From: Raillietiella orientalis
Lineage: Eukaryota
Direction of reading: 5' to 3'
DNA: 64,000 bases
Assembly: GCA_036172245.1 (NCBI GenBank)
Contig: JAYWIR010000087.1
Location: forward strand, 1 to 64,000
The stretch's first letter is position 1, and the number at the start of each line of letters is the position of its first letter. Of this stretch, positions 6,584-64,000 are shown in pieces. The notes below the pieces were generated by a model. That model ran no database searches. It saw nothing but the letters and a program-made list of their open reading frames with translations, and was not told where the DNA came from. A program made the position numbers and the translations under genes.

Positions 6584-6697
6584 AAAGCATTCGATTTTCA
6601 CCCGGATTTCGCCGGGGCGTTTATTATAAAACAAACATTTACAAAGACGTGCAGTGGCTGGACCATTGCTCCAGCCACGCACGAAGAAACACAGAGC

Positions 6698-6742
6698 CTG
6701 CCGGGTCACCGGTTGGCAGACCGGTACGGTCCACCGCGGCAG
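6698..6742 (-). other. Conserved 3' UTR nested stem-loop; representative copy
   Basis: Outer stem ctgccg..cggcag and inner accggt-ctgcca-accggt; covarying copies in E, J, L, M and K. Confidence 0.7.
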
Positions 6743-6811
6743 CAGGGGGAAGGGGAAAAACCAAAATACAAAACAAAAAAAAAAGAAAAGTTGGGAGGGT
6801 AAGGGAAGAGA

Positions 6812-9800
6812 TCACAGTTGATGGTGAGGCCGTTGCATCCTTTGCAGGATGCCGGCAAGCTCTTGCTGCATGCTTGGATCCAGGTGGGGCCATCGCGACG
6901 CCCTCCTCAGGAACTGGGAAGCTGGCTGGATGGCAACCTAGTCGCGTTGTCCTCCCGTAGCCTTGCTCCAGGCGACGACGATCCCGCGAATGCAGCACAG
7001 AGCTGCTAACGAGGCCGCTGGCCGAAGGGCGTCGGCAACAAAGAGGGCTTTCAGTGCGTTCCTGGGGTTGCCGCAGGGGATTCCGATGGCCGCGGCAAAG
7101 CGAAACCAAAGGGGCCGAAGGGCAACACAATCCACTAGCAGGTGGGGGAGGGATTCCCGTTACCCACACCTGACGCAATTGGGGTCCACCGCTCCCCAGG
7201 TCCAGTGGTATCGGAGGCCGTTGCAGGGGAGTCATCAGTGCTGCAACAGGAGAGCCGACTCCTGCCATTTTAAGGGGAGGGTGGAAGTGTTCATGAGATC
7301 CGGGGGCCACTTCAGATGTTCAATGGTAACATCGAGCAGCGCGCAAGAGCGCAGAAGTCCATTGGGAGGCGTACTCGGGGACGCAGCGTCTGTTAACTGG
7401 CCCGTCTTCCACTCTCCTATCTTCTTCTCCTTCCCGGAGATTGTAACTGAAACCTCCCACTTCGCTGTACGATCGCTGTCCAGATCTTCCATCAGGGAGG
7501 GCAGCGCAGCAGCGAGGGTGGTTCCTCCTGCCCACACTCTCTTCTTTGGATCCTCAAGGATCTTGCAGAGCATGCAACTTCTGTAACCCCCAAACAGGAA
7601 CCTTCGTTCCTGTTGGGAGCGTTGCATGCCTAAATGTCCCCACGTACGAACGGTTTCCTGCAACCACGAACTACCGTTCAAAGGACGACAGGTGAGCAAT
7701 CCTGGGTTTTTCCGGTACAACGCAGCCACCCTCCGTAGCTGGAGTCCGCATCGGTTGACGCGGCGACGGAGTGCAAGAAACGACGTCAGTCCCGTCTTGA
7801 TGGTGGCTTGCTAAAGAAGGAGACGTGCAGGGACGCACCAACAGGTGCACCACAACTCTGGAACGAGTGCCGACAATCGGAACTGCAGCTGAAGCTCCAG
7901 CCGCTCCAGCGTCAGGAGGCCCAGACCACCGTCCCGATGAGGAGCGCACAAGTCCTTTAAGCGGACTCGGGCCCTCCCGTTGCCCCAAACGGCGATACGG
8001 AGGAGGTCCTTGGTCCGCTTTTTAAGTCTCTCTGTGGGGGAGGCAAACAAAAAGCAGGGGGCGGAGGAGAGAAGCCGCGAACGTGTTCCAAACCGCGGCC
8101 CGTTGAGGCAGGAAAAACCTGCCGCCTCGGAACAAGCCGATCGCCGTCTCTGCTTTTTGGAGGCAGCCGGACCACGCTTCCGCAGGGGAGTAGTTCCCCG
8201 ACGGCACACCAAGGTACTTGAAGTACCTCACCGTGACGATCCATAAACGGACACAGTCCTGCTGCCCTGCCCACTCCGCACCAACTGGCATCACGGACGA
8301 CTTCGCCCTGTTCACCGTAAGTCCGGTTCCCCGATGCAGCAGGTCGAAAAACTTTTCGACCGCCGCAGCCGGGGTGGACATAGGGAGCAGCAGCAGAAGG
8401 TTGTTCGCGTACGCTGAAACCGCTGGCGTACCGGCGCAGTCGTGCGGCAGGTGCGCCAGAGTTCCCCTGTACGCGCTCAGTACCAACTCAAAGTACGTAC
8501 TAAAGAGCAAGGGGTTCAGGCTGTTTCCCTGCCGGATCCCACGCCGCACCGGCACGCCGTGCACGATCTGCCCGCTGAAAGTAACATTGATGAGCGCGTC
8601 GCGCCAGAAGGAGCGCAGATAGGCCACTAATGAGGCCGGGAAGCCCAAGCGTTCCAGAAGCTCTAGAAGGAGATTCTGGTCGACGCAATCGAATGCTTTC
8701 CTCAAATCGATTGCGACCGCAAAGGCTCCCTTCCCCACCCGACCATCCAACCCCTTGCCGGCGCAAGCACCGGAATTCCGGCTGCGCACCAAGCTCCTTT
8801 CATGTTGGAGCTCTAGCCAGGTAGAAGCGTGGAACAGTTTCGCCTCCATGCTTCGCCCGGGAACAGCACATGTCTGTTCCGGGCTGATGAAGGTGTTGGT
8901 AACCCGTCCCAACCTCTCTGCCCAAACCTTAGCCAGCAACTTGGCGTCCGCATTTACTATTGTGATGGGACGCCAGTTGTTCATGCTCCTCAGATCTCCT
9001 CCCTTTGAAAGGAGACGCACCTTTGCCGAACGAAACGAGGCGGGAACGTCACCTGTTTCGCGTATCAGAAAGGTAAGTTGCTGTACCAGGGGGGTAAGCT
9101 CAGCTGCGAAAGTTTAATAATACTCCGCGGGCAGGCCGACCTCCCCTGGAGCCTTGCGCCTCTTGAGCTTTCCGATGGCCGAGAGGATGTCGTCCATCGT
9201 GAAAGGGTCTTCGAGGGTCTTTCTCTGCTCCTCCCCGATCGCTGGAGCGCCTTCCGGAAGCAGAAGTCGTGAGACGTTCCTCTCCGGAGGTGCCCTGGCA
9301 TACAGGGAGGAGTAGTAACTCCGCAGCAGGCCGCGGATTTGGGCAGGTGCCCAGTGCTCCTGGCCCTGATCGCCCAGCAAGCTGGCCGATCCGGACTGCC
9401 AGGCTTGCCTCTCGGCTCCCGCTTTGTATTCCGCCAGCCTGCGGATGTCTGGGGTCCTGGCGTAACGGCGAGCCTGCAGATAGGCTCGTTTGTTACGTAC
9501 TTCGTCCCCAAATCTTGCAGGTAGGCGGTGCAGAGGGAACTGGTCGCAGAACTCCTGGACCGACCGCTTGAAGCGGTCCCAATCCTGAAGTGTCCGCAGC
9601 CTGAAGCTCCGTATGAACGTGCGGAGATGTTACGCCGCGTCCAAGAGCTTTAGCCAGTCCCCTGGGAGACGCCACGCTGACGAGGGGGGACCTCTGTCGC
9701 GCGGATGGATCTCGAGGACTAGCGGGCGATGGGCGGACAGCTCGCACGGTAACTTGCCGCGCCTTCCCACGCGAGGGCACTAGTGCTCGTCAAGGAACAC

Positions 9801-10394
9801 GTGGTCAATGCTGTCTTCCATCCTTGGTGCACTGGTTAACAAATTACGGGTGTGCACCGTCATGCACACCTCGTTCACCAAGTCACGCTCGGGATTCTGC
9901 CCATCTGGTTTCAGGCGAACGTTGAAATCGCCTGCAACCAGATGGGCATTCCGCACGCCTGCTTCGGTCAGCCAGTCTCGGCGGAGGGCAAGGAAAAACT
10001 CTTTCCTCGCCCTCCTGGTCATCAGGTCCGCGCCGCTCGGTGCGTACACGTTTGTGACGATCAGAGCGATCGAGTCGGACCACCTGAGATTCAGCTGGCT
10101 GACACGACCGTGATCGTCGAACCGCACTCCCCGAGCCGCAGCCTCGACGTCTGGCCGAAGCAGGTAAGCCACACGGCAACTTTTCGCTCTCTCACACCTG
10201 TACCATAGCCGCCCTCCGGAGATCCGTTCGATCTCTTGCGCTTGTTCTGCAGAGATCACGTGGATCTCCTGCAGCAGCGCAAGGTCGTAGGACTCCAGAA
10301 GGGCGGCCATGTCTCGTCTCCTGCCGGCGTCTGTCATGCCGTTCACGTTCCAAACGGCGATGCGCAGACGACGGCGGGAGGAGATTCCCGGCAT
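6812..10394 (-). pseudogene. C ORF2 (APE-RT-CCHC), disrupted; YADD changed to YANN
   Basis: ORFs 9780..10394 (APE), 8022..9020 (RT) and 7235..7729. Confidence 0.9.
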
Positions 10395-12070
10395 TACTGC
10401 TGGGAAGATTAAGGTGTGGGGGAGCCCGCCTCTTGCGAGGCGGACGGGATGTCCATGGGGGTTTCGGCCTTCTCAGGCACCTGAGGCACCTGTTCGGCCT
10501 CCACCCCCTACATCCCCTCCGTGTCCGTGCGAGGGAGTCTCTCGGGCGACGGGTCCCGAGAGTTTCCCACGCTCATGGCACCCTCGCTTGCGGAAGCAAT
10601 CTCTTCCCCTTCGACGGGGGAGACGAGCTTCCTTGGCTTTGTGGACTTACGTCCAACCTTCTTGCGCGGTGCCGTGGAAACGGAGGCTGCGTTTCCGGCC
10701 TCCACCTCGGGGTCGGAAGTGGGGGACTGCTGAGGGGAGGCCGGACGCCTTACGGCCTTCTTGCCAGCCTTGGAGGGTTCTGGCTGCAACGAAGCTGCCA
10801 GCTCCTCCGCGGCTCGCGCGAAGGCTACGTCATCGATGGTGGTGTCGATGACGGACGCTGCCGCCGGCTCCCTCCCCTCGCTGTTGATAGTGTCAACAGA
10901 GGGGAGGTCGTCGGTAGCGGCGAGTTCTTTCCGGCAGCGTTCGGCAACATCGAGAACGCGTTCGACAACGACGCTGCACTCTTTAATAATCGCGCTACCC
11001 TGCTCTTTCTTCTTCTGTAGGTAGGCGATTTTCTTTTCCATCCTCCTCTCCTTCTTTGATTTTTTGGCCGTTGCCACTTGCCACCTAGTCTCCTGGCCGG
11101 CTCCATCAACTTCTTCGGCGTTGGTCGCCGGAGTCTCGGGTGCGGCCTGGGTCTTGGGCGCGGGTGGCACAGCCTTCGCGGCAGCTTTCGCCGCAAGCCT
11201 TTTCTGCAGAAGCCGGGCGCGTTTTTAAAGGTTTCTCTTGGAAACCACCCGCACTGCTGCTTTTGGACACACCTCCCTCGTGTGGCCCATTGTGCCGCAT
11301 ACTTGGTACTGCACATTGGGACACCTCTTTTTGAGGTGGCCCGACGTATTGCAGAAGCCACAGTATTTCGGCTTCCCCACATACCAGAGGTCGACGGTTG
11401 CGCCTTCGACCACCAGTTTGTGGGGAAGAGTGCAGCCCTTTTGAACGCTCACGCGGGCAGCAGTGAGGCCGTGTAGCAGCCCCGCGTAGTCGTCGAAAGG
11501 ACTAACTTTCGTCCACTGCGCGTGGACCGTTCCGTATTTCTCCAACGCGGTGCGAACCTGCTCCTTGCGCATCCGCGCGGTACCACCTAACAGGTGGACC
11601 ACCATGCTGCGGTCCGCCTTAATAGGGAGGAGCCTGCGCGTCCTCATCACCACGGGGGTTTTAAGCAGTCGTTGGGCCAGCTCTGCTTGTTTGCAGATGA
11701 CCTCAACGTACTGACCCCCGCTGCGGATGGTCATAGCGCTGAGCTCCTCCTCTTTCACATCGAGAGCGCGCATGCCCTTCGAGAAGATGCGCGCGCTCTC
11801 TAAAGAATATAAATTGCCTACCTTGTAGAACAATGAGGGATTGTATCCCTCCTCTACATAGGCCGACAATTCCGCCGCGGCTGCAGGCGATGGCGCCGAC
11901 ACAACGGCTTTGCACGCCCGCGCTGCAGCGGGGACCGATTCTGTGGGGGCGGATGCCCCCACCTCCATCGCCTCCGGGAACGACGTTGTAGCCGCCCCCT
12001 GGGTCTCCATCGCCTCTGGTCGCGGCGTTGCCGCTGCCCCCTGGCCATTCCCGGTGGTCGCGTCAGGCAT
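10394..12070 (-). pseudogene. C ORF1, disrupted
   Basis: ORFs 11225..12220 and 10508..11170; zinc knuckles; TAATG overlap at 10392-10396. Confidence 0.88.
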
Positions 12071-12167
12071 CGCTGCCTGATCGACCACCGAACCACACGA
12101 CGCTTGTACTGGGGGAGACTTCCTGGCACGAGGAGCAGGGAGAAAACACGTCAACCCTGGAGCACGC

Positions 12168-14149
12168 ACGGCGTACAAATGCGTCGACCTGGATCTCCTT
12201 CTGGAGCTCGCAGAACGCATGGGTTTCCCGTCCGTGCTTTGAACTTACCTGCGCTCCTGCTGGCGCAACGCGTACATAAATATTGGTTTCATCAGTTGGC
12301 ACGTGTACGGCGTGCCAGTAGGCCGCAGCATCCGGCAGGGTGACAGCCTGAGCGCCTTGCTCTTCAGCATCTACTTCGAGTTGGTGCTGAGTGCATACAG
12401 GGTAACTCTGGCAGCTCTGCCGAGCTCGTGTGCTGGCACGCCTGCCGTGGCGGCCTATGCAGACGACCTTCTGCTGCTGCTTCCCGGGTCCACTCCGGCT
12501 AGTGCGCTCGAGGAATTATTCGAGTTGCTGCGCCGCGGGACGGGCCTGGAGGTGAACAGGGCGAAGTCGTCTATGGTCTTTGTGGGTTCGGCGTGGCCTA
12601 GACGGTCGGATTGGATCCTCTAGGAGATCGTCACACTGGCAACTGGCGTCCGATCAAACTTGTGAATGCGGACGCAAAGTTGCATGCCAAGTTGTGGGCT
12701 GAGCGCTTGGGGCGTGTGGCCGCTTCCGTGATCAGTCCGGGCAGACCTATGCTGTTCCCGGACGAAGCATGGAGTCATACCTGCTTCTCGCCAGCACATG
12801 GTGGCAGTTGGGACAACGCGTTGCCCAGGAAGGTCAAGGGAGTCTTGCGCTCCCCTCTGACCAGGAACATTGAAGAGAGGGTGGGAGGGACTCGGCGGGA
12901 GCCTTTTCAGTCGCGGTCGACTTGCACAAAGCATTCGACTGCGTCGACCAGGATCTCCTTCTAAAGCTACAGGAACGAATGGGTTTCCCGTACTTGCTCC
13001 GGTCTTTCCTGCGCTTCTGCTGGAGCAACGCGTATATAATTATTGGTTTCACTGGCCGGCACTTGTACGGAGAGCCGGTTCGTCGCGGCATCCGGCATGG
13101 TGACAGCCTGAGCCCCTTGCTCTACAGCATCTACTTCGAGTTGGTGCTAAAGGCATATAGGGTAACTCTGGCAACTCTGCTGAGCTCGTACGCCGGCACG
13201 CGTGCCGTGTCGGCCTATGCAGACGATCTTCTGCTGCTGCTTCCCGGGTCCACCCTGGCGAGTGTGCTCGAGGAATTCTTCGAGTTGCTGCGTCGCGGGA
13301 CGGTTATGGAGGTGAACAGGGCGAAGTCGTCGATGGCTTGTGTTGGCTCGGCGTGGGCTCGACGGTCGGACTGGATCCGCTTGTGGATCTCACGGGCAGG
13401 TGCTTCAAGTACCTTGGCGTTTTGTTAAGGGACTTCTGCATAGCAGAAGCTTGGTCCGACTGTGTTTAAAAGGCAGCGTTTGCGATCAGTCCGTTCCAAG
13501 AAAGCAAGTTACACTTGCAGCAACGGGCCGAGGTGTGAAACGCGTTTGCTGCTTCCCTCCTTCGCCTTCTTCTTTTTGTTTGCCCCGCCCCTCATTTTAT
13601 TCGCAAACGAGCAGCGTGCTTCCTGAGGACAGTCCTTTGGGGCAAAGGGAGGTCCCGTGTGTGGCTCAAAGTCTTGTGCGCTCTACGTAAGGACGGAGGA
13701 CTTGAAGTGCTTACGCTGGAGCCCATGAAACTGCAACTCCGATCCAGGACTCCCGCTTTCGCGGCTTAATTGTGGGACACGCCTTGTGCGTTCCAGCACG
13801 CCTGCTGGCCCAACGAGCCTGCGGATTCGGCGGACTTTTGTCGTTTCTGTCTGCGCGCGTCTGTAGAAGAGCATACTGTGGCGCTATGCTGCGACGCATC
13901 TTCGTTGCGGATCGGGAGAACGCCTGGATTTTCTGCCTTCCAGGGAACTACTCTGCCTGGTTGCACGGAGAAGTCTCCACCTGGTAAAAGGTCTACGTTC
14001 CGGCGGGCACAAGGAACATTTGCCTGAAAAGGCACTCCCGCTGGATGCTACAGGAGATCGTGCAGTATCACGACAAGCTTCTATGGGCCTTGATAACCCC
14101 CATCTTTCCAGTGCTGCCCTTCCTTGTGAATGCCAGGGACAGTAGCTAG
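12168..14149 (+). mobile_element. Family H ORF2 fragments: RT piece 12168-12634 joined to a second RT-to-C-terminal piece 12632-14149
   Basis: RQGD/RHGD and YADD each occur twice (ORFs 12303..12623 and 12922..13428); homologous to 21560-23556 on the minus strand. Confidence 0.85.
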
Positions 14150-15195: not shown

Positions 15196-15203
15196 AGTGA
15201 AGT

Positions 15204-17830: not shown

Positions 17831-17837
17831 CTTTGCT

Positions 17838-21555: not shown

Positions 21556-21559
21556 ATGC

Positions 21560-23556
21560 CGGAGAGGTCCTTCCGATGCGCGGGGATGGGAAACGAACAA
21601 AAACAAAAAGAAACAAAAAGTTCAAATGTGGGGGGGGAACAAAAGTTGTAGGGTTGGGAGGGCGGGGAAGGGATCACCGTGCGCGTGGACAGGTCCTCTA
21701 GATCCTGTTCAGGATCCGCACAAGCTGAGTCCTTTCAGCGCCTAAGTGCCGCCACTTGCAGACACTGCGCGCGAAAACGCGAGTCCAGTGTAAGGCGTTG
21801 CCGGTTAGCTGACGCCTGCTTCTGGTGGCGTTCCAAGCTGCCACTATTCCTCTGATGCAGCAGAAAACTGCTACACTAGCCGGCAGCGACAAGGCGTCAC
21901 TACAGAAGAGGCGCCTTAAAACGTCCTTTGGGCCGCATCCGCGCAAGTCCAGGATCGGCGCGAGACGATCCCACAAAGGGCGGATGGCTGTGCACTCAAG
22001 GAGAAGGTGGGGGATTGTTTCTTCTGCCCCACACCGGTCACAATCAAAATCCACAGCCCCACGAGTGGTGTGGTGCAGGCGTGCTTTGAATGGTAATCCC
22101 CACAGTACCACAAGAAACGCCACATCCTGCGATTTCAGGGGTAGGGATGCACTGATCCAGGACGCTGGGGGCCACTTCATCTCCTCCGGAGATAGTCCGA
22201 GTACCTCCCCCAGCGTCGAATTCCGTTGGACGGGACACTCGGCGTCGCAGCGCCAGCTAGCTGCCGAGATGTCCACGCCATTATCGATTGTGTACTGCTG
22301 ATTATAGTGCAGGACACGGTCCATTTCCCCTGCTCGCTACTGTCCCTCGCATTCTCAAGGAAGGGCAGCACTGGGGCGAGGGAGGTTATCAAGGCCCACA
22401 GGTGGTTGTCGTGGGACTGCACGATCTTCTGCAGCGTCCAGCGGGCGTGCCTTTTCACACAAGTGTTCCTTGTGCCCGCCGGAACGTAGATCTTTTGCAA
22501 GGTGGAGACTGACTCGTGCAACCAGGCGGAGTAGTTCCCTAGGAGGCAGGAGATCTAGGCGTTCTCCCGATCCGCAACGAAGATGCGTCGCAGCATTGAG
22601 CCACAGTATGCTCTTCTGCAGACGCGCGCAGACAGAAACGACAAAAGTCCGCCGATTCCGCAGGCTTGTTGGGCCAGGAGGCGTGCTGGAACGCATTACG
22701 GCGTGTCCCACAATTCGGCCGCGAGGGCGAGAGTCCTGAATCCAAGTTGCAATTCCATGGGCTCCAGAGTAAGTACGCCAAGTCCACCGTTTTCACGTGG
22801 AGCGCACAAGTCTTTGAGCCTCACACGGGACCTCCCTTTGCCCCAGAGGACTGTCCTCAGGAGGCCCGCCGCTTGTTTTCGAATATAATAATGGGCGGGT
22901 TAAACAAAGAGTAGGGGGCGAAGGAGGAAGGCCGCAAACGCGTTTCACACAGCGGCTTGTTCCTGCAAGTAGAACTTGCTTTCTTAGAACGGACTAATCG
23001 CCAACGCTGCCTTTTGGAGACAGTCGGAACATGTTTCTGCTGCGCAGAAGTCCCCCAACGGAACGCCAAGGTACTTGAAGCATCTGCCCGTGACGATCCC
23101 CTAGAGGATCCAATCCGACCGTCTAGGCCACGCAGAACCCACAAAGACCATAGACGACTTCGCCCTGTTCACCCACAGGCCCGTCCCGCGGCGCAGCAAC
23201 TCGAATAATTCCTCGAGCGCACTAGCTGGAGTGGACCCGGGAAGCAGCAGCAGAAGGTCGTCTGCATAGGCCGCCACGGCAGGCGTGCCAGCACACGAGT
23301 TCGGCAGAGCTGCCAGAGTTACCCTGTATGCCCTCAGCACCAACTCGAAGTATATGCTGAAGAGCAAGGGGCTCAGGCTGTCACCCTGCCAAATGCTGCG
23401 GCCTACTAGCACGCCGTACACGTGCCAACTGATGAAACCAATATTTATGTACGCGTTGCGCCAGCAGGAGCGCAGGTAAGTCCGGAGCACGGACGGGAAA
23501 CCCATGCGTTCTGCGAGCTCCAGAAGGAGATCCAGGTCGACGCAGTCGAACGCCTT
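21560..23556 (-). mobile_element. Element H2, downstream part (from KAFD to the 3' UTR)
   Basis: ORFs 23101..23505 (YADD) and 21698..22324 (CDRCGAEETIPHLLLEC); continues on the other side of J. Confidence 0.87.
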
Positions 23557-23570
23557 GCGTGCTCCAGGTT

Positions 23571-23580
23571 GGACGTGTTT
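23571..23580 (+). promoter_or_regulatory. Conserved 5' leader motif GGACGTGTTT (DPE-like internal promoter element); representative copy
   Basis: Also at 18320, 42307 and 48221, and on the minus strand at 6569, 12153 (variant), 37626 (variant) and 58703. Confidence 0.6.
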
Positions 23581-23653
23581 TCTCGGTGCTCCTCGTGCTA
23601 GGAAGTCTCCCCCAGTGCAAGCGTCGTGTGGTTCGGTGGTAGATCAGGCAGCG

Positions 23654-25330
23654 ATGCCAGACGCGACCACCAGGGATGGCCAGGGGGCAGCGGCAACGCC
23701 GCCCCCAGAGGCGATGGAGAGCCAGGGGGCGGCGGCAACGTCGCCCCCAGAGGCGATGGAGGTGGGGGCATCCGCCCCCACAGAATCGGTCCCCGCTGCA
23801 GCGCGGGCGTGGAGCGCCGTTGTGTCGGCGCCATCGCCTGCAGCCGCGGCGGAATTGTCGGCCTATGTAGAGGAGGGGTACAATCTTTCATTGTTCTACA
23901 AGGTAGGCAATTTATATTCTTTAGAGAGCGCGCGCGTCTTCTCGAAGGGCATGCGCGCTCTCGATGTGAAAGAGGAGGAGCTCAGCGCTATGACCATCCG
24001 CAGCGGGGGTCAGTACGTTGAGGTCATCTGCAAACATGCAGAGCTGGCCCAACGACTGCTTAAAACCCCCGTTGTGATGGGGACGCGCAGGCTCCTGTTT
24101 ACTCCAGCGGACCGCAGCATGGTGGTCCACCTGTTAGGTGTTACCGCGCGGATGCGCAAGGAACAGGTTAGCCCCGCTTTGGAGAAGTTTGGAACGGTCC
24201 ACGCGCAGTGGACGGAAGTTAGTCCTTTCGACGACTACGCAAGGCTGCAACACGGCCTCACTGCTGCGCCCGTGACCGTTCGGGAGGGCTGCACTCTTCC
24301 CCACAAACTGATGGTCGAAGGCGAAACCGTCGACCACTGGTATGTGGGGAAGCCGAAAAATTGTATCTTCTGCAATACGTCGGGCCACCTCAAAAAGAGG
24401 TGTCCCAATGTGCAGTGCCAAGTATGCGGCACAATGGGCCACACGAGGGAGGTGTGTCCAAAAGTAGCAGTGCGGGTGGTTTCCAAGAGAAACCTTAAAA
24501 AACGCGCCCGGCTTCTGCAGAAAAGGCTTGCGGCGAAAGCTGCCGCGAAGGCTGTGCCACCCGCGCCCAAGACCCAGGCCGCACCCGAGACCCCGGTGAC
24601 CAACGCCGAAAAAGTTGATGGAGCCGGCCAGGAGACTTGGTGGCAACTGGCAACGGCCAAAATATCAAAGAAGGAGAGGAGGATGGAAAAGAAAATCGCC
24701 TACCTACAGAAGAAAAAAGAGCAGGGTAGCGCGATTATTAAAGAGTGCAGCGTCGTTGTCGAACGCGTTCTCGATGTTGCCGAACGCTGCCGGAAAGAAC
24801 TCGCCGCTACCGACGACCTCCCCTCTGTTGACACTATCAACAGCGAGGGGAGGGAGCCGGCGGCAGCGTCCGTCATCGACACCACCATCGATGACGTAGC
24901 CTTCGCGCGAGCCGCGGAGGAGCTGGCAGCTTCGTTGCAGCCAGAACCCTCCAAGGCTGGCAAGAAGGCCGTAAGGCGTCCGGCCTCCCCTCAGCAGTCC
25001 CCCACTTCCGACCCCGAGGTGGAGGCCGGAAACGCAGCCTCCGTTTCCACGGCACCGCGCAAGAAGGTTGGACGTAAGTCCACAAAGCCAAGGAAGCTCG
25101 TCTCCCCCGTCGAAGGGGAAGAGATTGCTTCCGCAAGCGAGGGTGCCATGAGCGTGGGAAACTCTCGGGACCCGTCGCCCGAGAGACTCCCTCGCACGGA
25201 CACGGAGGGGATGTAGGGGGTGGAGGCCGAACAGGTGCCTCAGGTGCCTGAGAAGGCCGAAACCCCCATGGACATCCCGTCCGCCTCGCAAGAGGCGGGC
25301 TCCCCCACACCTTAATCTTCCCAGCAGTAA
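23654..25330 (+). pseudogene. J ORF1, nearly intact (premature TAG ending at 25216)
   Basis: ORF 23504..25216; CIFCNTSGHLKKRC and CQVCGTMGHTREVC; TAATG at 25328-25332. Confidence 0.9.
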
Positions 25331-28911: not shown

Positions 28912-29101
28912 TCCCTTCCCTTACCCTCCCAGCTTTCTTTTCTTTTTTGTTTTGTTTTTTGTTTTTTCTTCCCCCTTCTGCCTGCTGCCGTGGTGGACCG
29001 TACCGGTCTGCGAACCGGTGACCAACCAGGCTCTGTGTTTCTTCGTGCGTGGCTGGAGCAATGGTCCAGCCACCGCACGTCTTTGTAATAGTTTATTTTA
29101 C

Positions 29102-29130
29102 AATAAACGCCCCGGCGAAATCCGGGTAAA
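29102..29130 (+). terminator. Conserved 3' terminus: AATAAA plus CCCGG-loop-CCGGG hairpin; representative copy
   Basis: Ten element 3' ends share it (about 4635, 6600, 15207, 20401, 29102, 32114, 48177, 54088, 58727, 61283). Confidence 0.75.
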
Positions 29131-48200: not shown

Positions 48201-48205
48201 GATAA
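42299..48205 (+). mobile_element. Element F1: full-length LINE
   Basis: Flanked by atttcaa (42292-42298 and 48206-48212); ORF1 42379-44300, TGATG overlap, ORF2 44300-47892. Confidence 0.93.
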
Positions 48206-48212
48206 ATTTCAA

Positions 48213-51200
48213 TGGAGTGCGGACGTGTTTTTCTTCGCTCTCGTCTCCGTGCTTTCATCCGCATCATCTTGGCGTGGTGCATTGACGACGATGTCGACCC
48301 AACCCGAAGCTACTGAAGTTGGAGGAACAGCATCCGTATCTGCAATCGCGGACCTGACGACCGCCTCCAGTTCGTCTTTCTCGCCAATGGAGAGGAGTTT
48401 TGCTGACGTTGCTGCCACAGCAGCCGTCAAAGGGAAACCACTCGACGAGTCGGAGTTGCGGGCATACGTATCCCGAGGCTATAGACCTCTTCTCCGATAT
48501 AAGGTGAGTGGTTTTCTTTCTGCGCGCGACGGGAATCAGTTCAACGATGAACTGACGCGTGTTGGCGTGTGGGAGGAGGAGCTCCTCGCCATTATGCCCG
48601 TAAACGATATGGGGAATTTCAAGGTGCGTTGCAAAGACGCTGCACTTGTACGACGCTTGCTGCGCACCCCGTTGTCGATCCATGGCCAGAAGGTCTTCCC
48701 GGCCGCCATTTAGGACTCATTTGTGGCGGAGATTTTCGAAATCGAGTCGGAAATCTCCGATATTGATATTCGGAACTCGTTGGCGAAATTCGCCACGGTC
48801 CATGCGATGTGGAGGGTGCGTAGCAACCTCAAGGACTTCCCGTCCATACACAGCGGAGTCGGTGCAGTCCGGCTTACAATGCCGTTACGCCGTCTGCTGC
48901 CCACCAAACTACAGGTGAAAGACACGGTCGTTCACCTGTGGTTCGTGGGCAAAGTAAAAACGTGCGAGCAATGCGGGAAGGTGGGGCATTGTTTGGATAG
49001 ATGCCCCTCTGGAAAATGCCGTTCTTGCAAACTATCCGGGCACCAATTGAAAAATTGCCCGGATCTTTTGCGAAAAAAGTCAGCCGCGGAGCTCCATCCT
49101 AAAAAACAAAGCGCGGATAAAAAGAAAAAAACTGCGAAAGACCTCGAGACCCCACGGCAGAAATTGTGTAAAAACGCTAGGCGGAATGTCGCCCCAAAGC
49201 TGCAGGAAACCTCGCACGCTAAGCCCTGCGCGCCACCTCTCGCGGATGGGGAACCGCAAAAGAAAAAGTGCGGAGAATCCGGGGCAATGATAACTCCCCC
49301 TAGGCACAATAGCTGTCCTTCCCAAGCACGTCCGGCTCTCACGGAGTTCAAGCAACCGGCGGGGACGCCAATGGACAACGGCGGTAAGGACACTTCCAGT
49401 ACCGTCAGATCCATTCCTTCACCTCCTGCAGTGGCTGAGAAGTTCAAATCGGGTAAGAAGGGTTGTGCCGTGTCGACTTCGAAAGTCGGCAAAAAACAAT
49501 CCGCGTCGCGATCCAACACCGCGAAAGCGGAGAAAAATCTCACGTAGAAGCAGTCGGAGAGGAAGCTTTCGACTGGCGCGGATGCTGTGTCAACGAAGGG
49601 ATTTATGGCCCTTCCGAAGGCAGCGTCCATGACGAGCGTGTGGGAGCCATCAAAAGTGCTCCCGTCCCAATACGCGGATGGCTTCAAAGATGGCAATAGA
49701 GCACAATCTCTATTTACGGCGCCACGCGAAGTGAGAAACCGTAATGAAGTAAAGAAGACTTCAGCAAAGGTCCCTCGTGCAACTGCGCGTGAGCACGCTG
49801 AAAACGCGCGCGCTGGGAAAAAAGCCGTCACCAAAAGCGATGCTCTGGTGATGGAAAACGACAACAGGACAGCTGTCAATTCAGGAGAACGTGTCATTAC
49901 TTCGCGGAAGGCCGAAATCCGATCGAACATGCGCTGGTCGGACTCGGAGATGGATGTCGTTCTGATCACCGAGACGAGGACAACTCGTTCAAAAGCGTGT
50001 GCGCGCCGATCGAAAGTAGGCCGCCAGGCAACGCTCGCGGCGAAGCAACGCGAAGTCTTCACGAAAGCCGACGGGGTTTCGCCTGGCGTGGAGTCATTGG
50101 ATGCATGCAGCACGACAAAGGACGGTGGCGAACGTCCCCTCCAGCCAGTCGTCCTGCTCGCCGTCTGCTTGCCGGATAAAGCGAGCAAAAAGCCGCCACC
50201 TCCTCAGCAGTGATGCGGGGTATCGCGTCTTCTCTTCGTCTGTCCGTAACGTGTTGGAACGCGAACGGACTACAGAACGACGAGAAGAGGCGAATAGTAG
50301 CCAACACCCTGCGCTCCTTCGACGTGGCGCTCCTGCAGGAGATTTACGTAATCTCCGACGAGCAGGCAGCCGAAATAAAGAAGCGCGCAGGCTGAACGCT
50401 ACATTGGTGGTGCGGCGGCGCACTCACGTGCGGCGTCGCGTTTCTCGTACGAGGAAAAATGGCGGAAGCGTTGCGTAGTGTTCGTTTCGATGACGACGGA
50501 CGGATAGGCCAGCTTGTCATCAAGTGGTCCGAGTCCATCGATCTCGTCGTTACGAACGTCTACGCGCCAAGTGAATCTCGCTACCTCGAAGAAAGAGTAG
50601 CTTTCTTTGGTGAGGTGCAGAGCCAATGGCTCAACAACTCCCGCTTCCAAGTGGCGCACCTTGTCGCTGGGGACGTCAACGTCCGCCTGGTCTCCGACGA
50701 TTGGAGCCGCCCGAGGGAGCGCGCGCTGCCCATCGAGATGTGCACGTCCGTGCACGCCGCCATCTTGATAGTCAGCGAACTTGGAATAAAAAGATCGCTC
50801 GATCACGTTTTCCTCGATGAAAACCTGCATTCGCGTGTGGGCAGGAGAGGAAGATTGTTCACTAGGCACTCTGACCAAAACAGGTTGGGGTATGAGGTCG
50901 TTTGGCGAGGCAGGGGGCCTCCGTTGATAAACTGGAGGATGCAGGCGGATTGGCTTAGCCAACCGGAGGCTACGGAGCATCTACGTGGGTATCTTCAAAG
51001 CTTTGCCATTCAAGAACTTTCGGACTGGGACAATCTCAAAAGATCTGTCCGCGAATTCTGCTGCGAATTCCCCTTGCATTGGCTTTCACGCGGTTTCGGA
51101 GAGGGCGTGGCCAACAGTAGAGACTTTCTGAAGGCCCGCACGTTTTCCAGACGCGGGGACGTCGGAAGTCTCGCGGAGTACAAGGCGAGGGCCGAGCTCC

Positions 51201-54117
51201 AGGTCTGGCAGTCCGGAGCAACATGCCTGTTGGACGACAAGGGCCAGGAATGTTCGGCCCCAGCCGAAGTACGCCGCATTGTGAGACGCTACTACTCCTC
51301 GCTGTACGCGGAATTCCCGACAGAGGATATTCTTTCTGAGATACTCCTGTCTCAGGATGCTCGTGTTGTCGGTGAGGAGGAACGCGAACGTCTCAACGAG
51401 CCCTTCACGGCGGATGAATTTTCGACTGCCATCGCTGGGCTGAAGAGACGGAAGGCGCCAGGCGAGAATGGGCTCCCTGCAGAGTTTTATCAGTGCTTTG
51501 AAGTGAAACTCATTCCCTTGATGTTGAGACTCGCGACGTTGATGAGTGAATCCGCGAATGTCCCGGATTCCTTCCGCTCAGCGAAGGTGCGTCTCCTGCC
51601 GAAAGGCGGAGACTTGCGTCAACTTAACAACTGGCGTCCGATCACATTGGTGAACTCGGACGTCAAGTGGTATTCCCAGCTGTGGTTCGCGCGGTTAGGA
51701 AGTATCGCGGAATCTTTGGTGAGTCCGGAACAAACCTACGCGGTTCCGGGACGATCCTTGATGGCGAACATCCTTTTCGTGCGTACATGGATGCAGCTGC
51801 AGGAAGTTGTGGCGCAGCAAAGCCAGGCTGCTGCGAAAGTCACTGCCGCACGGAAGAAGAACAGGCGCCGACGGCAGAAGGGAACGCCAGGCGTCTTGGC
51901 GGTCGCGGTCGATCTCCACAAGTCGTTCGACTGCGTAAACCAGAAGCTGCTTTTGGAGCTTATGGAACGCTTTGGGTTCCTTGCGCAACTCGTGCTGTAT
52001 TTGCGCGCGTGCTGGCGCCACGCGCTATCCTGCATCACTTTCAGCGGCTGCCGCGTGTATGGTATTCCCGTTCGTAGGGGCATCCGACAGGGAGACAGCT
52101 TAAACCCGTTGCTCTTCAGCATCTTCTTTAGGTTGGTGCTAAGAGCACACAGGCTGACGCTGTCTCACTTGTCAAGCTGCTGCCCGGGAACGCCAGCCGT
52201 GGCCGCTTACGCTGATGACCTCCTTCTTCTGCTCCCCATGTCCACCCCGGCGTCCAGTGTCGAGAATTTTTTTGACCTGATTCGTCGAAGAGCGGGCGTG
52301 AGCGTGAACAGAGAGAAGAGCGTGGTCGTTCCTGTGGGTACGTCGTGGGAGGGGCAGTCCGACTGGATCCGCATGGGGATCCCCACGGGCGGGTACTTTT
52401 AGTACCTTGGCGTTCTTTTGGGCGCTTTAAGCGCACCCTAAGCGTGGGCGGACTGTCTTCAGCAAGTAGAGTTGGCCATCAGTCCGTTCTTTAACGGCAA
52501 GTTTACCTTGCAGGAACAAGCGACTATTGGAAGCACCTTTGTGGCCCCCCTCCTCCGTCCCCTTTTTTTTGTTCTGAACCCCCCCTATGCAGCGAAACAG
52601 CGGGCTAAACGCCTGCTCAGGAACGCTCTCTGGGGTCTGGCGAGTTCCAGGATCCGCCTTAAAGATTTGTTAGCTCCCCGTTTGGATGCTGGTTTGGGTA
52701 TCCTGACAATGGAGCGAATCGGACTGCAGGTGCAGTTCCGACTGCTGGCACTGTGTGCCCAGCTATGGACATCCCCCTGTGTGTGCCAGCCCGCGTTCTC
52801 CTGCGGAGATGCGCCGGCAGCGGAGGATTTCTCTCGCTTCTGCCGGGCACTCAATAAAGGAAGCGGGGTTTCGGGTTTCCATTGCGGCAGTTGACCGCAC
52901 TTCTGGAAGCACACTCGTGGATCTCCTGCCGCCCAATGAACTTTGAAGCTTGGCTGCAGGAGTCTGTTGAATCCTGGGCGGCGTTCCCAGGAATACGCCT
53001 TGAAGATCTTCGCCCCCTGCGCCAATTTTTTCCACGATCCTTGGAAGAAGTACTGCAGGACGAGGTGAAGTTTACTAGCCTGGTTGGCACGCCTCTTGCC
53101 GCAGCGCTGTTTGCCCTCAGGGCAACAAACGACAGTTACCAACCGGCGAGGTGGGAGGTTTCCTGCACGATAGCGGGAAAAACCAAACTTCTTGACGCCT
53201 GGTAGACGAGTGAGTTGGCGGACACCGCCACTCCTCGTGTTACTGCAAAAGGACTCCTCCGGTAAGCAGAATTACTTGCTGTCACCTCCGCAGAACTTAT
53301 AGTCCCTCCACAGTGCATGGACAGCTCGCTGCTTCTTCTTGCTTGGAAACAAGCCGTGCTGCTTTTCGTTCACTGGGGTTTTCAGTGCAACGAGCGTTGG
53401 CATCGGGACTCCGGTGGACTTGCTTCTCCGAACTGCGTTCGGTGCGGATCGACGGAGTCGATTCCGCACCTACATTTGGACTGCGGTGTCCTACAAGGAC
53501 TGTGGCGTAGGCTGACAACAGCACTAATGCATCCCGTGGACACCGCAAGAGACTTGCTACGACGATTATTCACGCCGAGCGGGCTGTCACTAAGCTCAAG
53601 GATTGCAACCAGCGGTTGTATACGCGGGATAGTTTGCGTCCGCCAGGCGTTGCTAATCAACGGACAGCACCAAGAGGTAATCAGCAAAGCATCCGTCTAC
53701 ATGGGAGCATCCGCTAGATGGTGTCATTTCATAGAGGAGACAAGAAGGAATCTCGCCGAAATACACCGCCGGTTTACACACGCTCAGCAGCTGCCAACCC
53801 GGTGATGATTGCCCTACCCTCCATTTACTGATTTTGTAATTTCTTTTAACACCCGCGTCCCCATAGGCTCCGGAACATTTCAGGTTTTCATCGTTTAAAT
53901 CCCCGTGAGTACGGAACCTAACCAAAACCCGTTACCCTTCCCTCGAGTTTTTGATTCTTGTTTGTTTCCCTTCATTCCTCCCATGCTGCGAGCGGTTTGT
54001 TTACGAGGTCTGGGTGCCGGTTATTTTTCTATGTTCCCTGTCGTTCTGTTGGTTGAGGACATTGTCCCTGACCAGGTTATTATTATTAATAAACGCTTCG
54101 GCGTGTCCGGGTGATAA
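48213..54117 (+). mobile_element. Element F2: full-length LINE, head-to-tail with F1
   Basis: Flanked by atttcaa (48206-48212 and 54118-54124); ORF1 48291-50213, ORF2 50213-53805. Confidence 0.93.
50213..53805 (+). pseudogene. F2 ORF2; contains the longest open stretch in the window (647 aa, APE through RT YADD)
   Basis: ORF 50459..52402 with NVYAP, LDHVF, NWRPITLVN, KSFDCV, RQGD and YADD; stops elsewhere. Confidence 0.92.
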
Positions 54118-58712: not shown

Positions 58713-58725
58713 GACTTTCGGCGAT

Positions 58726-60826
58726 GCCACCTGGTTCCGCGGGACGTTTATTAAAAACATTTCAGCAGTGAATACAGAACGTGGTTCAAGGCCCCACTGA
58801 CAGCCACGCAATACTGAAACTGCCGGGACACCGGGACGCAGCTCGGTGTGGCTCTCCTCGGCAGTGGGGGGGGATGGGTGAGAAAACAAAAAAAAAATAA
58901 AAGAGAAAAACAGACCACAAAAAAAGTTTGGAGGGCCGGGAAGGGATCACAGAAAACTGCTGGGAGGGCCTGTCCTTTGCAGGATGCCTTCTAGTTCCAT
59001 TTTCAGTTTTCCAAGATAAGGCCATTTGGTAGCTCTCTGCAGGAAGCGAGAAGCATACTCGATGACATCCCTCACGATGCAGTCTTCATCTTCGGCATCA
59101 TTCCAGGCCGCCACGATAACACGAATGCAGAAAAGTGCTGCAAGGGCTGCGGCTGGGATGAGGGCGTCCCGCACAAAGACAAGACTGAAGACACATCCAA
59201 CATTGCCACCATTTGGTATACCTAGTCCCGATTTAGGACGATCCCAAAAAATGCGGACGGCAGAGCATTTAACTAATCGGTGGGGGAGCGGCTCCTGCTC
59301 CGCATATCTGGCACACGCAAGATTAACTCTTCCCCGCGTATAGTGGAAGCGACGCGCGTTGAAGGGTAGACCCTAATGTAGCCACAGAAGCGCCGATCCT
59401 TGCCACTTCAGGGGAAGAATCCTGGATTTAACTAGAACCGGAGACCACTTCAGGTCATGTAATCGAATGCCGAGCAGCTCGCCCCATCTTCTTAATTCAC
59501 GCGAATGGAGACTAGGGGTCGTTGCATCTGTCAACTCTCCCATGGTCCAGCCGCTCATCATCTTCTCTCTGCCTGCGATACGGCAGCAGACTTGTCACCT
59601 TGGCTTACGACTTTCGTGAACTGCCCTTTGGAGGAAGGGCATCGCCGTAACAAGGGGTGTGCCTTCCGCCCACGTGCAACTCGGTGGAAATACAAGAATT
59701 TCACGGAGAGTTCGGCGGGCGCAAAAGCCGACTCGCAGGCAGTTCATCCGGTCTTCGCACCTCTAGTTCTGCTTGGCCCAGGTGCCAGCAGTCTCTTCCA
59801 GCCAAGCGGAGGAGCTGGCGGTGCCACAAACCATCCAGTCGTTCTCCTTTACCAGGGTTGCCATGCGGCCGAGCAGTAGACCGCATCTTCGAATCTTCAG
59901 GTGAGGGCACAGAAGAAACGATGCGAGTCCTTCGCAGCGGGACACAAGCCTGGCCAGGAGGTGGGCCGGAATGCACCAAGCGGTGCTTTACATCTTCGCT
60001 GCGATGGCGAGGGTTCGCCATTGCATCTGGATTTTCACGCGCTTCAGCGTCAAGATACTGAGACCGCCGTCCCGACAAGGAGCGCACAAGTCCTTCAAAG
60101 GGACTCGGGGCCTCCCCTTGCCCCAAAAAGCTATGCGGAAGAGGTCTTTTGTCCGCTTTTTAGATCCCACGGCGGCGGAAAGCAAGGGACGGAGGATGGG
60201 GGCCGCGAAGGCGTTCCAAACCGCGGCCCGTTCTGGCAAGTGAAACTTGCCTTCCAGGAACGGGTCGATCGCCGTCTCGACTTTTTGGAGGCAGCTGGAA
60301 CACGCTTCCGCAGGGGAGAAGTCCCCTAACGGCACACCGAGGTACTTGATGCACCTCACCGTGGGGATCCCCAGACGGACCCATTCCTGCTGCTCTGCTC
60401 ACGCCGCACCAACTGGCATCATGGACGACTTCGCCCTGTTCACCGTAAGTCCGGTTCCCGGATTCAGCAGGTCGAAGAACTTCTCGACCGCCGAAGCCTG
60501 GGAAGACATAAGAATCGGCAGCAGAAGGTCGTCCGCGAGCGCTGAGACCGCAGGCGTTGCGGCGCATCCATGCGGCAGGTGCGCCAGAGTTTTCCTATAC
60601 GCTCTCAGTACCAACTCAATGTAGGTACTGAAGTGCAAGAGGCTCAGGCTTTCTTATTGCAGGATTCCACGTCGCACCGGCACGCCGTGAACAGTCTGCC
60701 GCTGAAAGTAAGATTGATTTGCGAATGGCGCCTGCTGGAGCGCAAATAGTCCTTTAATGAGGGCGGGAAGCCCAAGCGTTCCAAAAGCTCCAGCAAGAGA
60801 TTCTCGTCGACGCAATCGAATGCTTT
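58726..60826 (-). mobile_element. Element K: 3' half from KAFD to the terminal hairpin
   Basis: KAFDCVD, LADD, GKFHLPERAAVW; 3' end aataaacgtcccgcggaaccaggtgg (reverse complement). Confidence 0.85.
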
Positions 60827-61279
60827 CCATCTCCGCGCCACCCCGACGGAAGGCTGGAAGGAAGTCCAGCAAACCCCGGAAAGCTTCTACCCATACCGAA
60901 GGCGTGGAGTCTACTGCGGACAGCGAGGGTGCCATGAGCTTGGGAGAATCACTGGAATCGTCACCCGAGAGAGCAACACTCACAGACACGGAGGAGATGG
61001 AGAGGCTTGAAGCCTGAAAGGTAACCAAGGTGCCTGAGGAGGCCGAAACCCTAATGGTCATCTCACCCGCCTCGGAAGAGGCTAGTTCCATTACGCCGTC
61101 ATCTTCCCGGCAATAATGCCGGGAATCTCCTGCCTCCGTCGTCTGCACATTGCCGTATGGAACGTAAACGGCATGACAGGAGCCGGCAGGAGACGAGACA
61201 TGGCCGCCATTCCAGGATGGTTCGACCTTGCGCCGCTGCAGGAGATCCATGTGATCTCTGCAGAACAAGCGCAGGAGAT
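60827..61279 (+). mobile_element. Element B': B-family fragment starting exactly after the KAFD target of K; cut by A'
   Basis: Homologous to 4665-5118; preceded by aatcgaatgcttt (60814-60826); TAATG overlap at 61114-61118. Confidence 0.85.
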
Positions 61280-63498
61280 TTCTCACCCGGTCACGCCGGG
61301 GCGTGTATTCCATATAACATAAACAAAAAAAACAATTATACAAAATAAACCAGTTGGGAACCAAACTCTCAGCCGACGACTGAACAAGAATGAAAAGAAT
61401 ATTGATGGCACGCAGGCCAGAGTAACAGTTTTGAGAACGGTGTGGGGGGGGCGGGGAACACAAAGAAACCAAAGTAAAATAAAAACAATGAATAAGGAGG
61501 ACGGGGTAAGGGTCTTTAAGATCGCTCTGGAAGACACGAAGATAAAAGCATTGGCACCGGAAATTTTACCAAGCGGAAGGGGACAGGATATAGGTGGGCG
61601 AGAGGTTGAAGGGGTCTCCGGATTACGCCGTTCTCAAAGGTCTGTAAACCGGCGATGCATGCCGGTGATGTCCTCATTCACCTTGTCACGAAGATGAGAC
61701 CACCTTGAAGCCTTCTCCATGGATTGAGCTGCAAGCAGGTGAGCCTCCCTTCGCTGCGCCTAAAACTCCAGGGCGTAGCGGGCCTTGACGATGGCGCGAA
61801 CGCAACACATGGTTGCCACAATCGCGCCAACCGAAAGTACATTCCTGCTCAAGAAGCGCCGCAGCACATCAATGGCTGTGCCTCCTTGTGGCATGATGGC
61901 CGAAGTGAGCCTTCGCCACAGTTCCCGGAGGTCACCGTAGTCCAGCAAAAGGTGCGGAAAAGACTCGATCTCTCCGCACCTTAAACAGTTTGGCAGAGCA
62001 GCGCTCCCGGAAACGATGCTTCGCTGCCTATTACAGTGTAATGCACAATGTAAAAAGAGCAGCACATCTTGTTTCCACTTTAAGGGGAACACGGAGCTGT
62101 CCAAACAAACGGGGGGAACCACTATCTCTCAGGGGGGCACACTTAAATATTCGCTCCACCGAAGTATACCCTTCGCCCGATTCGGAGGAGCGGCGGCTTA
62201 CACCAGCTCCTTTGTCGTCCAACTGCCGAGGAGCTTACTGACTGCCGCCATTTTGCAGGAGAACTCCCATTCCGCCGGTAGACAACCGTGGTTGCTTGCA
62301 CTGAGGGCAGACAGCGCTGCGGCGAGTATTGTGGCGGGCAGACGATCCGACAACTTCTTGTCCTGCATGACTTCGTCCATTCGATGACTGAGGAGAAGTC
62401 GCAGGCGCCGAAGTTCTTCCGGGCGCGTTCCTTTGGAAGCTGCCTACGATGAAAAACATTCCTGCCGCCATGCATTAATGTTCATAAGGCGGCAGGAGAT
62501 CCAGCTTTGGGCTCCCAGTTGTGACGACAGCTGCCTCAGCGGGAAGCCAAACCCTATTCTGGTGTGCCGAAAGTGGGGTAGCAACGACAGCAGTCCCTCG
62601 CTTCCCGTGCAGCGCCTCAGTATAAGGCGTGCGGGTAAGTACCACGGCGTTCACTACTGTTTGGCACAGAGGCGCAGTATCCGAAACTGGACCTGCAGTT
62701 CGATGCTGTTTAAGTCGAGGATGCCCAAGCCTGCATCCTGACGCGCCGCCACCAAGTCTTTAAGTCTTACGCGGGATCTTGCAGCGCCCCGCAACGCTTT
62801 GCGTAAAAGGCGCTGCGCCTAGACTTTGACTTCCTGGGGAGTGGACAAACAAAATACAGGGGGCGGAAGAGGGGGGCAACGTAGGTGTTCCAGATGCAGA
62901 CCCGTTCCGGCAAGACGAACTCGCCTTCTGAAAACGGGCCAAGTGCACGCTCTGCCTTCCGAAGGCAGTCCGACCACTCTTCTGTGATGCAGAAGTCGCC
63001 CAACGGCACGCCAAGGTACCTGAGGTACCTGCCCGTGGAAATGCCTAGGTCGATCTAGTCGAACTGCCCTTCCCACGTCGCACCTACCGGAACAACCATA
63101 CACTTACTCCTGTTAACGCTCACGCCCGCACCGAGACGAATCAACTCAAAGTCTTCAAGCGATGTTGCCGGGGTGGACATGGGCAACAGGAGAAGCAGGT
63201 CGTTGGCATAGGCTGCCACGGCCGGCGTACCTGGACAGGATCTCGGCAGGTTGGCTAGCGTCAGCCTGTAAGCCTCCAGCACCAATTCAAAATAGATGCT
63301 GAAGAGCAGCGGGCTTCAGCTATCACCCTGCCCAATTCCTCGTCGTACCGGCACTCCATACACGCGACAGCCACTGAAAACAATGGATGTAATCGCATAG
63401 CGCCAGCAGGAGCGCAAGTTCGCCAACATGGATGTCGGGAGATTCAGACGTTCCAAAAGCTCAAGAAGAAGCTTTTGGTTCACGCAATCGAAAGCTTT
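61280..63498 (-). mobile_element. Element A': A-family 3' half, cut at its own KAFD motif
   Basis: Homologous to about 2440-4664; same junction with the B-family APE as A. Confidence 0.88.
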
Positions 63499-64000
63499 GC
63501 GCCCTTGCGGTCGCAATTAACTTGCGGAAAGCATTCGATTGCGTCCACTAGAATCTTCTTCTGGTGCTTCTGGAACGCTTGGGCTTCCTGGCCTCTTTAG
63601 TGGCCTATCTGCGCTCCTGCTGCCGCGACGCGCTCATCAACGTTACTTTCAGCGGGCAGTCCGTGTACGGCGTGCCGTTTCGGCGTGGGATACGGCAAAG
63701 AGACAGCCTGAGCCCCTTGCTCTTCAGTACGTACTTTGAGTTGGTACTGAGAGCGTACAGGGGATCTCTGGCGCACCTGCCGCACGATTGTGCCAGTACG
63801 CCGGCCGTTTCAGCGTACGCGGACGACATTCTGCTGCTGCTCCCTATGTCCACCCCGGCTGCGGCGGTCGAGGAGTTCTTCGACCTGCTGCATCGGGGAA
63901 CCGGACTTACGGGGAACAGGGTGAAGTCGTCCGTGATGCCAGTTGGTGCGGCGTGGGCAGGGCAGCAGGACTGGGTCCGTTTGGGGATCCCCACAGAGAG
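63499..64000 (+). mobile_element. Element Z: C/L-like RT fragment antisense to A', running out of the window
   Basis: AVAINLRKAFDCV..RQRDSLSP..LAHLPHDC..YADD. Confidence 0.8.

Follow-up and report, generated by a model that had tools for sequence, protein, structure and literature searches.

Introduction

Known targets of site-specific long interspersed nuclear elements (LINEs) include ribosomal DNA (rDNA), the genes for small nuclear RNA and tRNA, telomeres, microsatellites and a small number of DNA transposons. LINE clusters of the Zepp type are linked to algal centromeres, and Zepp itself is poly(A)-tailed. Here we describe a lineage of LINEs, called B/C after two of its elements, in a stretch of 64,000 nt from Raillietiella orientalis (GenBank assembly GCA_036172245.1, contig JAYWIR010000087.1, positions 1 to 64,000, forward strand; hereafter the window). 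Copies of this lineage are found again and again at one coding motif in the reverse transcriptase (RT) of other LINEs, the codons for Lys-Ala-Phe-Asp (KAFD). All of the evidence comes from this single window.

Four described systems come closest. Among LINE lineages that have an apurinic/apyrimidinic endonuclease (APE) and are target-specific, the part of PMC4640811 dealing with targets includes transposons. The sections of PMC8226300 and PMC3446292 on Zepp of Chlorella and Coccomyxa, and on ZeppL of Chlamydomonas, present them as L1 LINEs with two open reading frames (ORFs) that build nested and tandem clusters by targeting existing copies, with Zepp elements that are GC-rich relative to their own genome. 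The ingi/RIME pair, a LINE and a short interspersed element, goes to one spot in the coding region of RHS genes, just downstream of a nucleotide-binding motif that is conserved, such that the gene halves flank at least one element (as given in the relevant passage of PMC7563717). For R2Ol, the pertinent portion of PMC6795142 relates that when read-through target sequence pairs with the target, efficiency goes up and the starting point of reverse transcription is set. A search of the open-access literature, with the primary Zepp papers outside its scope, found no report of a LINE targeting the RT-coding sequence of other LINEs.

Results

Insertions at the KAFD codons

It is likely that the B/C lineage integrates through target-primed reverse transcription (TPRT) with a strong preference for KAFD-coding DNA in other LINEs, and always antisense to it. 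The 13-mer AATCGAATGCTTT at the KAFD codons is matched 11 times in the window with at most 1 mismatch, where shuffled sequences lead one to expect 0.05 matches. Seven of these are the KAFD codons of uninterrupted RT copies (2442, 8687, 12928, 17289, 18057, 27025 and 63528). The other 4, at 6584, 29131, 60814 and 63486, are exactly at junctions, where the sequence beside the 13-mer changes from an antisense RT to the start or the end of a B/C-type element. A degenerate copy with 3 mismatches, AGTCGAACGCCTT, is found at 23544-23556, and the copy at 12168-12180 has diverged further, with no match at up to 3 mismatches. A sequence-only reading of this DNA had put a junction at the same 13-mer in all 6 places; that is accurate for the first 4, while at 23544 and 12168 the copies are degenerate. 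The junctions are real and non-random, and they probably reflect a site-preferential insertion habit.

The reference used here is the most complete copy, B2, at 23558-29130 (+). All fragments were mapped onto it, B coordinates are counted from 23558, and K-A-F-D is at B 3468-3480. Nine elements have in common a 3' tail of the form AATAAAC(10-11 nt)CCGGGT (or CCAGGT), after which come a few bases and no long poly(A). The form AATAAAC..CCGGGTGA(A)n is kept across families, and the B/C-type version reads AATAAACGCCCCGGCGAAATCCGGGT... Full-length 5' ends share ..GCGGACGTGTTTTT... Because the tail and the 5' motif serve as landmarks, true element ends can be distinguished from breaks.

As judged from its flanks, B in host H is a two-sided insertion, and it is the sole event showing both junctions. 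On the left, the antisense H RT runs up to 23559, where B takes over with 11 extra nt ahead of the conserved 5' motif. On the right, the B tail ends ..CCGGGTAAA and at 29131 continues as AATCGAATGCTTTGTGCAAATCGACC.., which is the antisense of A-F-A-V-A-V-D-L-H-K-A-F-D of H. Against H2, an unbroken member of the H family, the two H flanks align at 83% and 86% with a 12-nt overlap, which makes H2 the empty site. The duplicated target around B is about 16 nt long and imperfect: it reads AGTCGAACGCCTTGCG 5' of B and AATCGAATGCTTTGTG 3' of B, identical at 12 of 16 positions. In the 3' copy we see the canonical variant, the same as B's own KAFD codons, and in the 5' copy the synonymous variant used by E and L.

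This insertion is present twice. The segment 6584-12634 is the reverse complement of 23090-29143 (96.0% over 6,056 nt), with 96.1% identity in the H flank and 96.1% in the B body. Since flank and body of this 6-kb inverted duplicate are equally diverged, the junctions at 12168 and 23544 are one event, copied. The junctions at 6584 and 29131 both consist of the B 3' end plus the 13-mer, and only the sequence downstream differs, the copies B1 and B2 parting just past the 13-mer: at 29144 H goes on, and at 6583 another element starts.

That other element is C, and it provides the second event. Read on the minus strand, the order is B1 tail, 13-mer, 10 extra nt and the conserved 5' motif with which C shows itself to be full length; its identity to B is 76%. 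This arrangement is what a second hit on a regenerated target would give. In the third event, the antisense RT of host K runs up to ..GCAATCGAATGCTTT at 60826, directly adjoining a (+) C-like element that starts from B 1483, inside ORF1; one junction is visible. In the fourth, the antisense RT of host A'2 runs up to ..GCAATCGAAAGCTTTG at 63498/63499 and is followed by a (+) B-like element from B 3441. The joint is a near-palindrome, with opposite-facing KAFD 13-mers 29 nt apart (63499-63527).

The 13-mer of A'2 is an A'-specific variant, AAAGCTTTCGATT, that is also found in the paralogue A'1, so the 13-mer at this 5' junction is host DNA. A'1 and A'2 have the same 3' junction inside C and the C-like element (host sequence ending ..GCAGGAGAT). 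Since A'1 shares that junction and runs on through KAFD, it is a paralogous empty site, and the break in A'2 is later. The C::A' composite exists as 2441-5120 and 60824-63499 and was copied as a unit, given that its C parts are 88.0% and its A' parts 90.2% identical. It is possible that the whole composite is mobile.

Independence, chance and conservation of the site

At the 5' junctions the host ends fall within 3 nt of each other, with GCTTT for K/C-like, GCTTTG for A'2/B-like, GCTTT for 13-mer/C and, for comparison, ..CCTTGCG for H. In the 487 nt that follow the motif, identity between H, K and A' is 64-70%, so these are three host families. The inserts have different 5' ends, at B coordinates 1, 14, 1483 and 3441 (full length twice, truncated twice), and all 4 of them run antisense to the RT of the host. 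By our count there are four insertion events, not six. The sequence-only reading had described the incoming DNA as B/C-like, opposite to any adjacent host ORF and inserted in independent events; the inserts are indeed 76-96% identical to B and antisense in all cases, and the diverged hosts and different 5' ends agree with independence, except that 12168/6584 and 23544/29131 are one duplicated event.

In the group formed by B, C and D, six 5' junctions can be read and 4 of them lie at KAFD, against none among the junctions read from other families (A', A1/A2, G, J, K and tandem partners). Tails read at places other than KAFD are those of A' in C, J in I and A1/A2 in L, and those in the head-to-tail pairs K-N and G-F. 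The distinct hosts broken at KAFD are H, K and A'2; RT copies intact at the site number 12 (2442, 8687, 12928, 17289, 18057, 27025, 34200, 38547, 46006, 51920, 55297 and 63528), a count that includes A-family variants located by protein motif. By our own arithmetic, which assumes about 16 KAFD sites, a tolerance of 7 nt and both strands of 64 kb, chance would place a junction at KAFD with a probability of 16 × 7/128,000 strand positions, or about 9 × 10−4, and 4 of 6 junctions with about 10−11.

The motif is not exceptionally conserved. Over 10 RT copies the 13-mer ranks 87 of 922 windows, with a mean column identity of 0.869 as against 0.931 for the best, and synonymous KAFD variants with 2-4 differences occur in D, E, L, A1 and A2. 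The suggestion that hosts cannot easily escape by mutation is not borne out by this rank, by the existence of those variants, or by the 12 uninterrupted RT copies.

Several observations speak against a KAFD habit or weaken the case for it. Element D, 73-77% identical to B, is cleanly inserted elsewhere, in E at B 2567-2581, and what adjoins a B-like fragment at 17838-18320 is the 5' end of a different element, with no KAFD junction; because these two lie at other sites, the preference is not absolute. Unoccupied 13-mers remain, 3 of them exact (in B1, B2 and a B-like element) and 4 with one mismatch. There is one independent 3' junction in view, that of B with its B1 and B2 copies; each of the three other events has its 3' junction outside the window. 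Between B1 and B2, 4 of the 16 nt at the B 5' junction (12168-12183 versus 23544-23559) are different, as against 96% identity in the rest of the two copies. This spot may be a local hot spot of change or of gene conversion, and local hypermutation or gene conversion could account for the 12/16 match between the target copies without any RNA-borne copy. No junction was confirmed in reads, where sequencing run X1 (15% of sampled words) has short (about 300 nt) and divergent contigs. A scan of metagenome contigs for the shared 3'-tail pattern produced two loci that we set aside as chance, since they are apparently bacterial coding genes and have no blastn match to the window (E 1 × 10−5).

A scan of viral contigs for the tail together with the 13-mer found none. 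A loose end of a run X1 contig at 25493 repeats the junction of the A' tail in C. Three joints from run X1, connecting 17267 to 23531/23535, were considered as extra junctions and rejected, as they can equally be intact antisense RT copies split over two references. In the related element L, the empty site of the D insertion is preserved near 54400.

The LINE nest

The window is, on its coding content, a nest of L1-superfamily non-LTR (non-long terminal repeat) retrotransposons with endonuclease, RT and a CCHC ORF1. Nearly all of it consists of such elements, its G+C content is 56-57%, and 86% of its sequence has a second copy within the window. The long frames match Pfam profiles for the APE endonuclease (PF03372, E = 6.8 × 10−11 and 3.6 × 10−15) and RT (PF00078, E = 1 × 10−14 to 1 × 10−16), which places an N-terminal APE and an RT in ORF2, and encode ORF1s with CCHC knuckles; the C-terminal zf-RVT match (PF13966) is weak, at 23.3 bits versus a cut-off of 27.5. 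The best Protein Data Bank matches of ORF2 are to human L1 ORF2p (E = 6 × 10−37), far ahead of R2, and KAFD aligns with EKAFD of L1 ORF2p, immediately after the motif-A aspartate. Protein searches returned 1 and 4 unnamed matches, and an Atlas search returned generic LINE clusters only. Window scans found no tRNA, no Rfam family and no relevant tandem repeat. A tail hairpin is predicted in 4 of 4 folded tails, at a level not above shuffled sequence (z from −0.15 to −1.12).

Four head-to-tail pairs are present, B1-C (6584-6625), G-F (15189-15232), A1-A2 (48176-48225) and K-N (58709-58752). In each, the gap from the 3' tail to the conserved 5' end of the next element is 8-20 nt. Coordinates of the main features are given in Table 1.

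Table 1. Elements, hosts and landmarks of the LINE nest in the R. orientalis window
Feature	Coordinates	Strand	Remarks
Element B copy 2 (reference), full length: ORF1, APE, RT, zf-RVT-like C-terminus	23560..29130	+	3' tail AATAAACGCCCCGGCGAAATCCGGGTAAA; from ORFs, Pfam PF03372 and PF00078, weak PF13966
Host H, part after KAFD	21832..23559	-	Ends in variant AGTCGAACGCCTTGCG (23544-23559); 85.6% to H2 12927-14149
Host H, part before and including KAFD (13-mer 29131-29143)	29131..29787	-	Straight after B tail; 82.9% to H2 12632-12938
H2, H family, uninterrupted through KAFD (12928-12940)	12640..14142	+	Family-level empty site
Element B copy 1 with 467 bp of H flank (12168-12634)	6597..12166	-	Inverted duplicate of copy 2; 96.0% over 6,056 nt
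Lone 13-mer between B1 3' tail and full-length 5' end of C	6584..6596	-	From pattern search and junction alignment
Element C, full-length 5' end (B 14-1936), broken at B 1936 by antisense A'1	4669..6583	-	
A'1, KAFD intact at 2442-2454	725..4668	+	Paralogous empty site for B-like in A'2
Host K, RT from KAFD (60814-60826) to 3' tail (58729-58752)	58729..60826	-	
C-like insert, 5'-truncated at B 1483	60827..61279	+	Abuts KAFD of K
Host A'2, 3' end to KAFD (63486-63498)	61280..63498	-	A'-specific variant of the 13-mer
B-like insert, 5'-truncated at B 3441	63499..64000	+	90% to B; runs off window
Element D, full length, antisense in host E	32114..37631	-	Counter-example to the KAFD preference; perfect 17-bp duplication TGGAGATTCCGGAGCGT at 32097-32113 and 37632-37648
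A1-A2 tandem at G-D-F-N codons of host L endonuclease, sense orientation	42300..54117	+	A-family copies 90% identical
Nine 3' tails, AATAAAC..CCGGCG..CCGGGT	4635-4659, 6600-6625, 15208-15232, 20402-20426, 29102-29127, 32119-32143, 48176-48200, 54088-54112, 58729-58752		

Discussion

How the insertions may arise

Both TPRT as the mechanism and the source of its specificity are what we infer. Hallmarks of TPRT are present in the window, namely the perfect target duplication of D and 5' ends at many B coordinates. The geometry of the junctions also fits it. In insert orientation the target reads GACGCA^ATCGAATGCTTT^G. The 3' tail of the element (..CCGGGT[A/G]AA) joins at the first mark, where one nick would fall (GCA^ATCG), and the host sequence of the 5' side stops 12-16 nt downstream, at or just past the second mark, where the other nick would fall. 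The 13-mer therefore flanks the insert on both sides, and the site can be hit again, which would give the tandem of B1, 13-mer and C.

What reads the site could be a sequence-selective APE endonuclease, as in elements of the Tx1/R1 type. A second source, compatible with the first, would be pairing of the nicked target with an antisense KAFD stretch that ends the element RNA. We lean slightly toward the view that 3'-terminal RNA homology at least contributes to the specificity. The different variants on the two sides of B have a parallel at the A1-A2 tandem, where the 8-mer ATTTCAAY is present in three copies (42292-42299, 48206-48213 and 54118-54125); the 5' copy is ATTTCAAC, ending in C, and both 3' copies, which come after tails, are ATTTCAAT, ending in T. 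The variant patterns at both places, and the head-to-tail pairs as well, would follow if the element carries a target-like stretch at its 3' end. In its strongest form, the proposal is that the 3' extremity of B/C RNA is an antisense KAFD guide of 13-16 nt for pairing with any LINE's RT gene on the sense strand, that insertion is homology-directed, whether alone or alongside the endonuclease, and that every insertion disables the RT of a rival or sibling and leaves a fresh target. This we offer tentatively, and we would sooner expect it to fail than to hold in full.

Other explanations

One could suppose that LINEs home to LINE-rich regions in the Zepp manner, for example by way of chromatin, with a weak nick preference, and that the recurrence at KAFD is a by-product of microhomology in the B/C tails. 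Much in the window is in keeping with this. It is entirely LINE-in-LINE, other families too have gone into LINEs (D in E, A' in C, J in I, A1/A2 in L), AT begins the flank directly after the A-rich tail in 5 of the 7 families read, and Zepp and ZeppL are a precedent, going by the portions of PMC8226300 and PMC3446292 on L1 elements that target existing copies and form nested or tandem clusters. But a weak preference for AT cannot account for four events that share one orientation and lie no more than 3 nt apart in three host families that have diverged, and the window holds no other independently recurring site, the two A'-in-C junctions being one copied event. We regard regional homing as the whole story as unlikely; it overlaps with the homology-guided version of KAFD-directed TPRT and does not exclude that version.

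The roles could also be reversed, with K, A'2 and the part of H after KAFD being 5'-truncated insertions that start at KAFD, from a stall of the RT or a cut in the RNA, and with the B/C DNA being the target. For K alone this may hold, since its junction is visible from one side and the direction cannot be read directly. Taken over all the events, we find it very hard to maintain, because both halves of H flank B, and a piece 3'-truncated at KAFD (29131-29787) is impossible by TPRT; because A'1 continues through KAFD with the same 3' junction as A'2, which makes the A'2 break the later one; and because beyond the K 3' end there is no (+) C-like remainder, the 5' end of another element being there instead.

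Hardest of all to credit is that the joints come from recombination between inverted RT copies at the motif (the explanation that the sequence-only reading had itself named as able to overturn it, and one that fails on junction geometry), from twin priming or fold-back, or from assembly mis-joins at the 13-mer: inverted duplications, unexplained breaks such as that between L at B 4106 and M at B 2706 (55933-55935), and the near-palindromic A'2/B-like joint are in its favor, but homologous exchange at the motif yields a chimeric RT in a single orientation and not a head-to-head joint, the partner breakpoints are off the motif (in ORF1 at B 1483, at a 5' untranslated region end, and 27 nt short of the KAFD that the partner itself carries), twin priming or fold-back needs one element for both arms when those at 63498/63499 come from different families and share 67.6% identity, and mis-assembly must contend with duplicated blocks that differ by 4% and 10%, and so are distinct loci, and with a 13-nt match too short to mis-join.

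The joint at 55933-55935 and another at 14142-14274 (H2 at B 4690 with F) are neither 5' nor 3' ends, and are probably deletions or rearrangements.

Comparison with known systems

If KAFD-directed TPRT is what happens here, then a retrotransposon would live on its own kind and inactivate it, in a safe haven that grows with its rivals, and there would be a concrete sequence-level mechanism by which LINE-only clusters, such as those of the Zepp type, build themselves. If a short 3' RNA stretch reads the target, this would be natural homology-programmed target-primed reverse transcription by an APE-type element. With the RNA guide, it would be a LINE specialised on other LINEs, a short segment of its RNA would define the target, and tandem arrays would be seeded along the way.

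The homology-guided version is modelled on R2Ol, where RNA with target homology at its 3' end pairs with the nicked target. R2 differs in having a restriction-like endonuclease and a 28S rDNA target, and the RNA-borne 13-mer proposed here is drawn from variant patterns at two sites. With ingi/RIME in trypanosome RHS genes, the likeness is an insertion hot spot in a multicopy coding gene; the differences are that the target there is a host gene family and not a retrotransposon RT, and that the LINE clade and the organism group are others.

The window resembles a Zepp or ZeppL cluster in being mostly repeated within itself, and in its four head-to-tail pairs and several nested inserts. It differs in having several diverged families in one nest, and in its 9 tails, which end in CCGGGT plus a few bases with no long run of A, as against the poly(A) of Zepp. 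The portions of text compared, which do not extend to the primary Zepp descriptions, name no defined internal target motif.

With the APE LINEs of the Tx1/R1 type, the elements described here share APE plus RT, a fixed orientation and 5' truncations, and probably also insertion at one defined sequence of a multicopy target. The likeness is one of insertion habit. The target here differs, as an antisense protein-coding RT motif of related LINEs, and the specificity is not absolute: where most copies of a Tx1/R1-type element would be expected at one sequence, the share at KAFD is that of the readable B/C/D 5' junctions given above, for this window. On these comparisons, site-preferential insertion at KAFD looks like the working of a target-specific APE LINE in a nested setting of the Zepp type.

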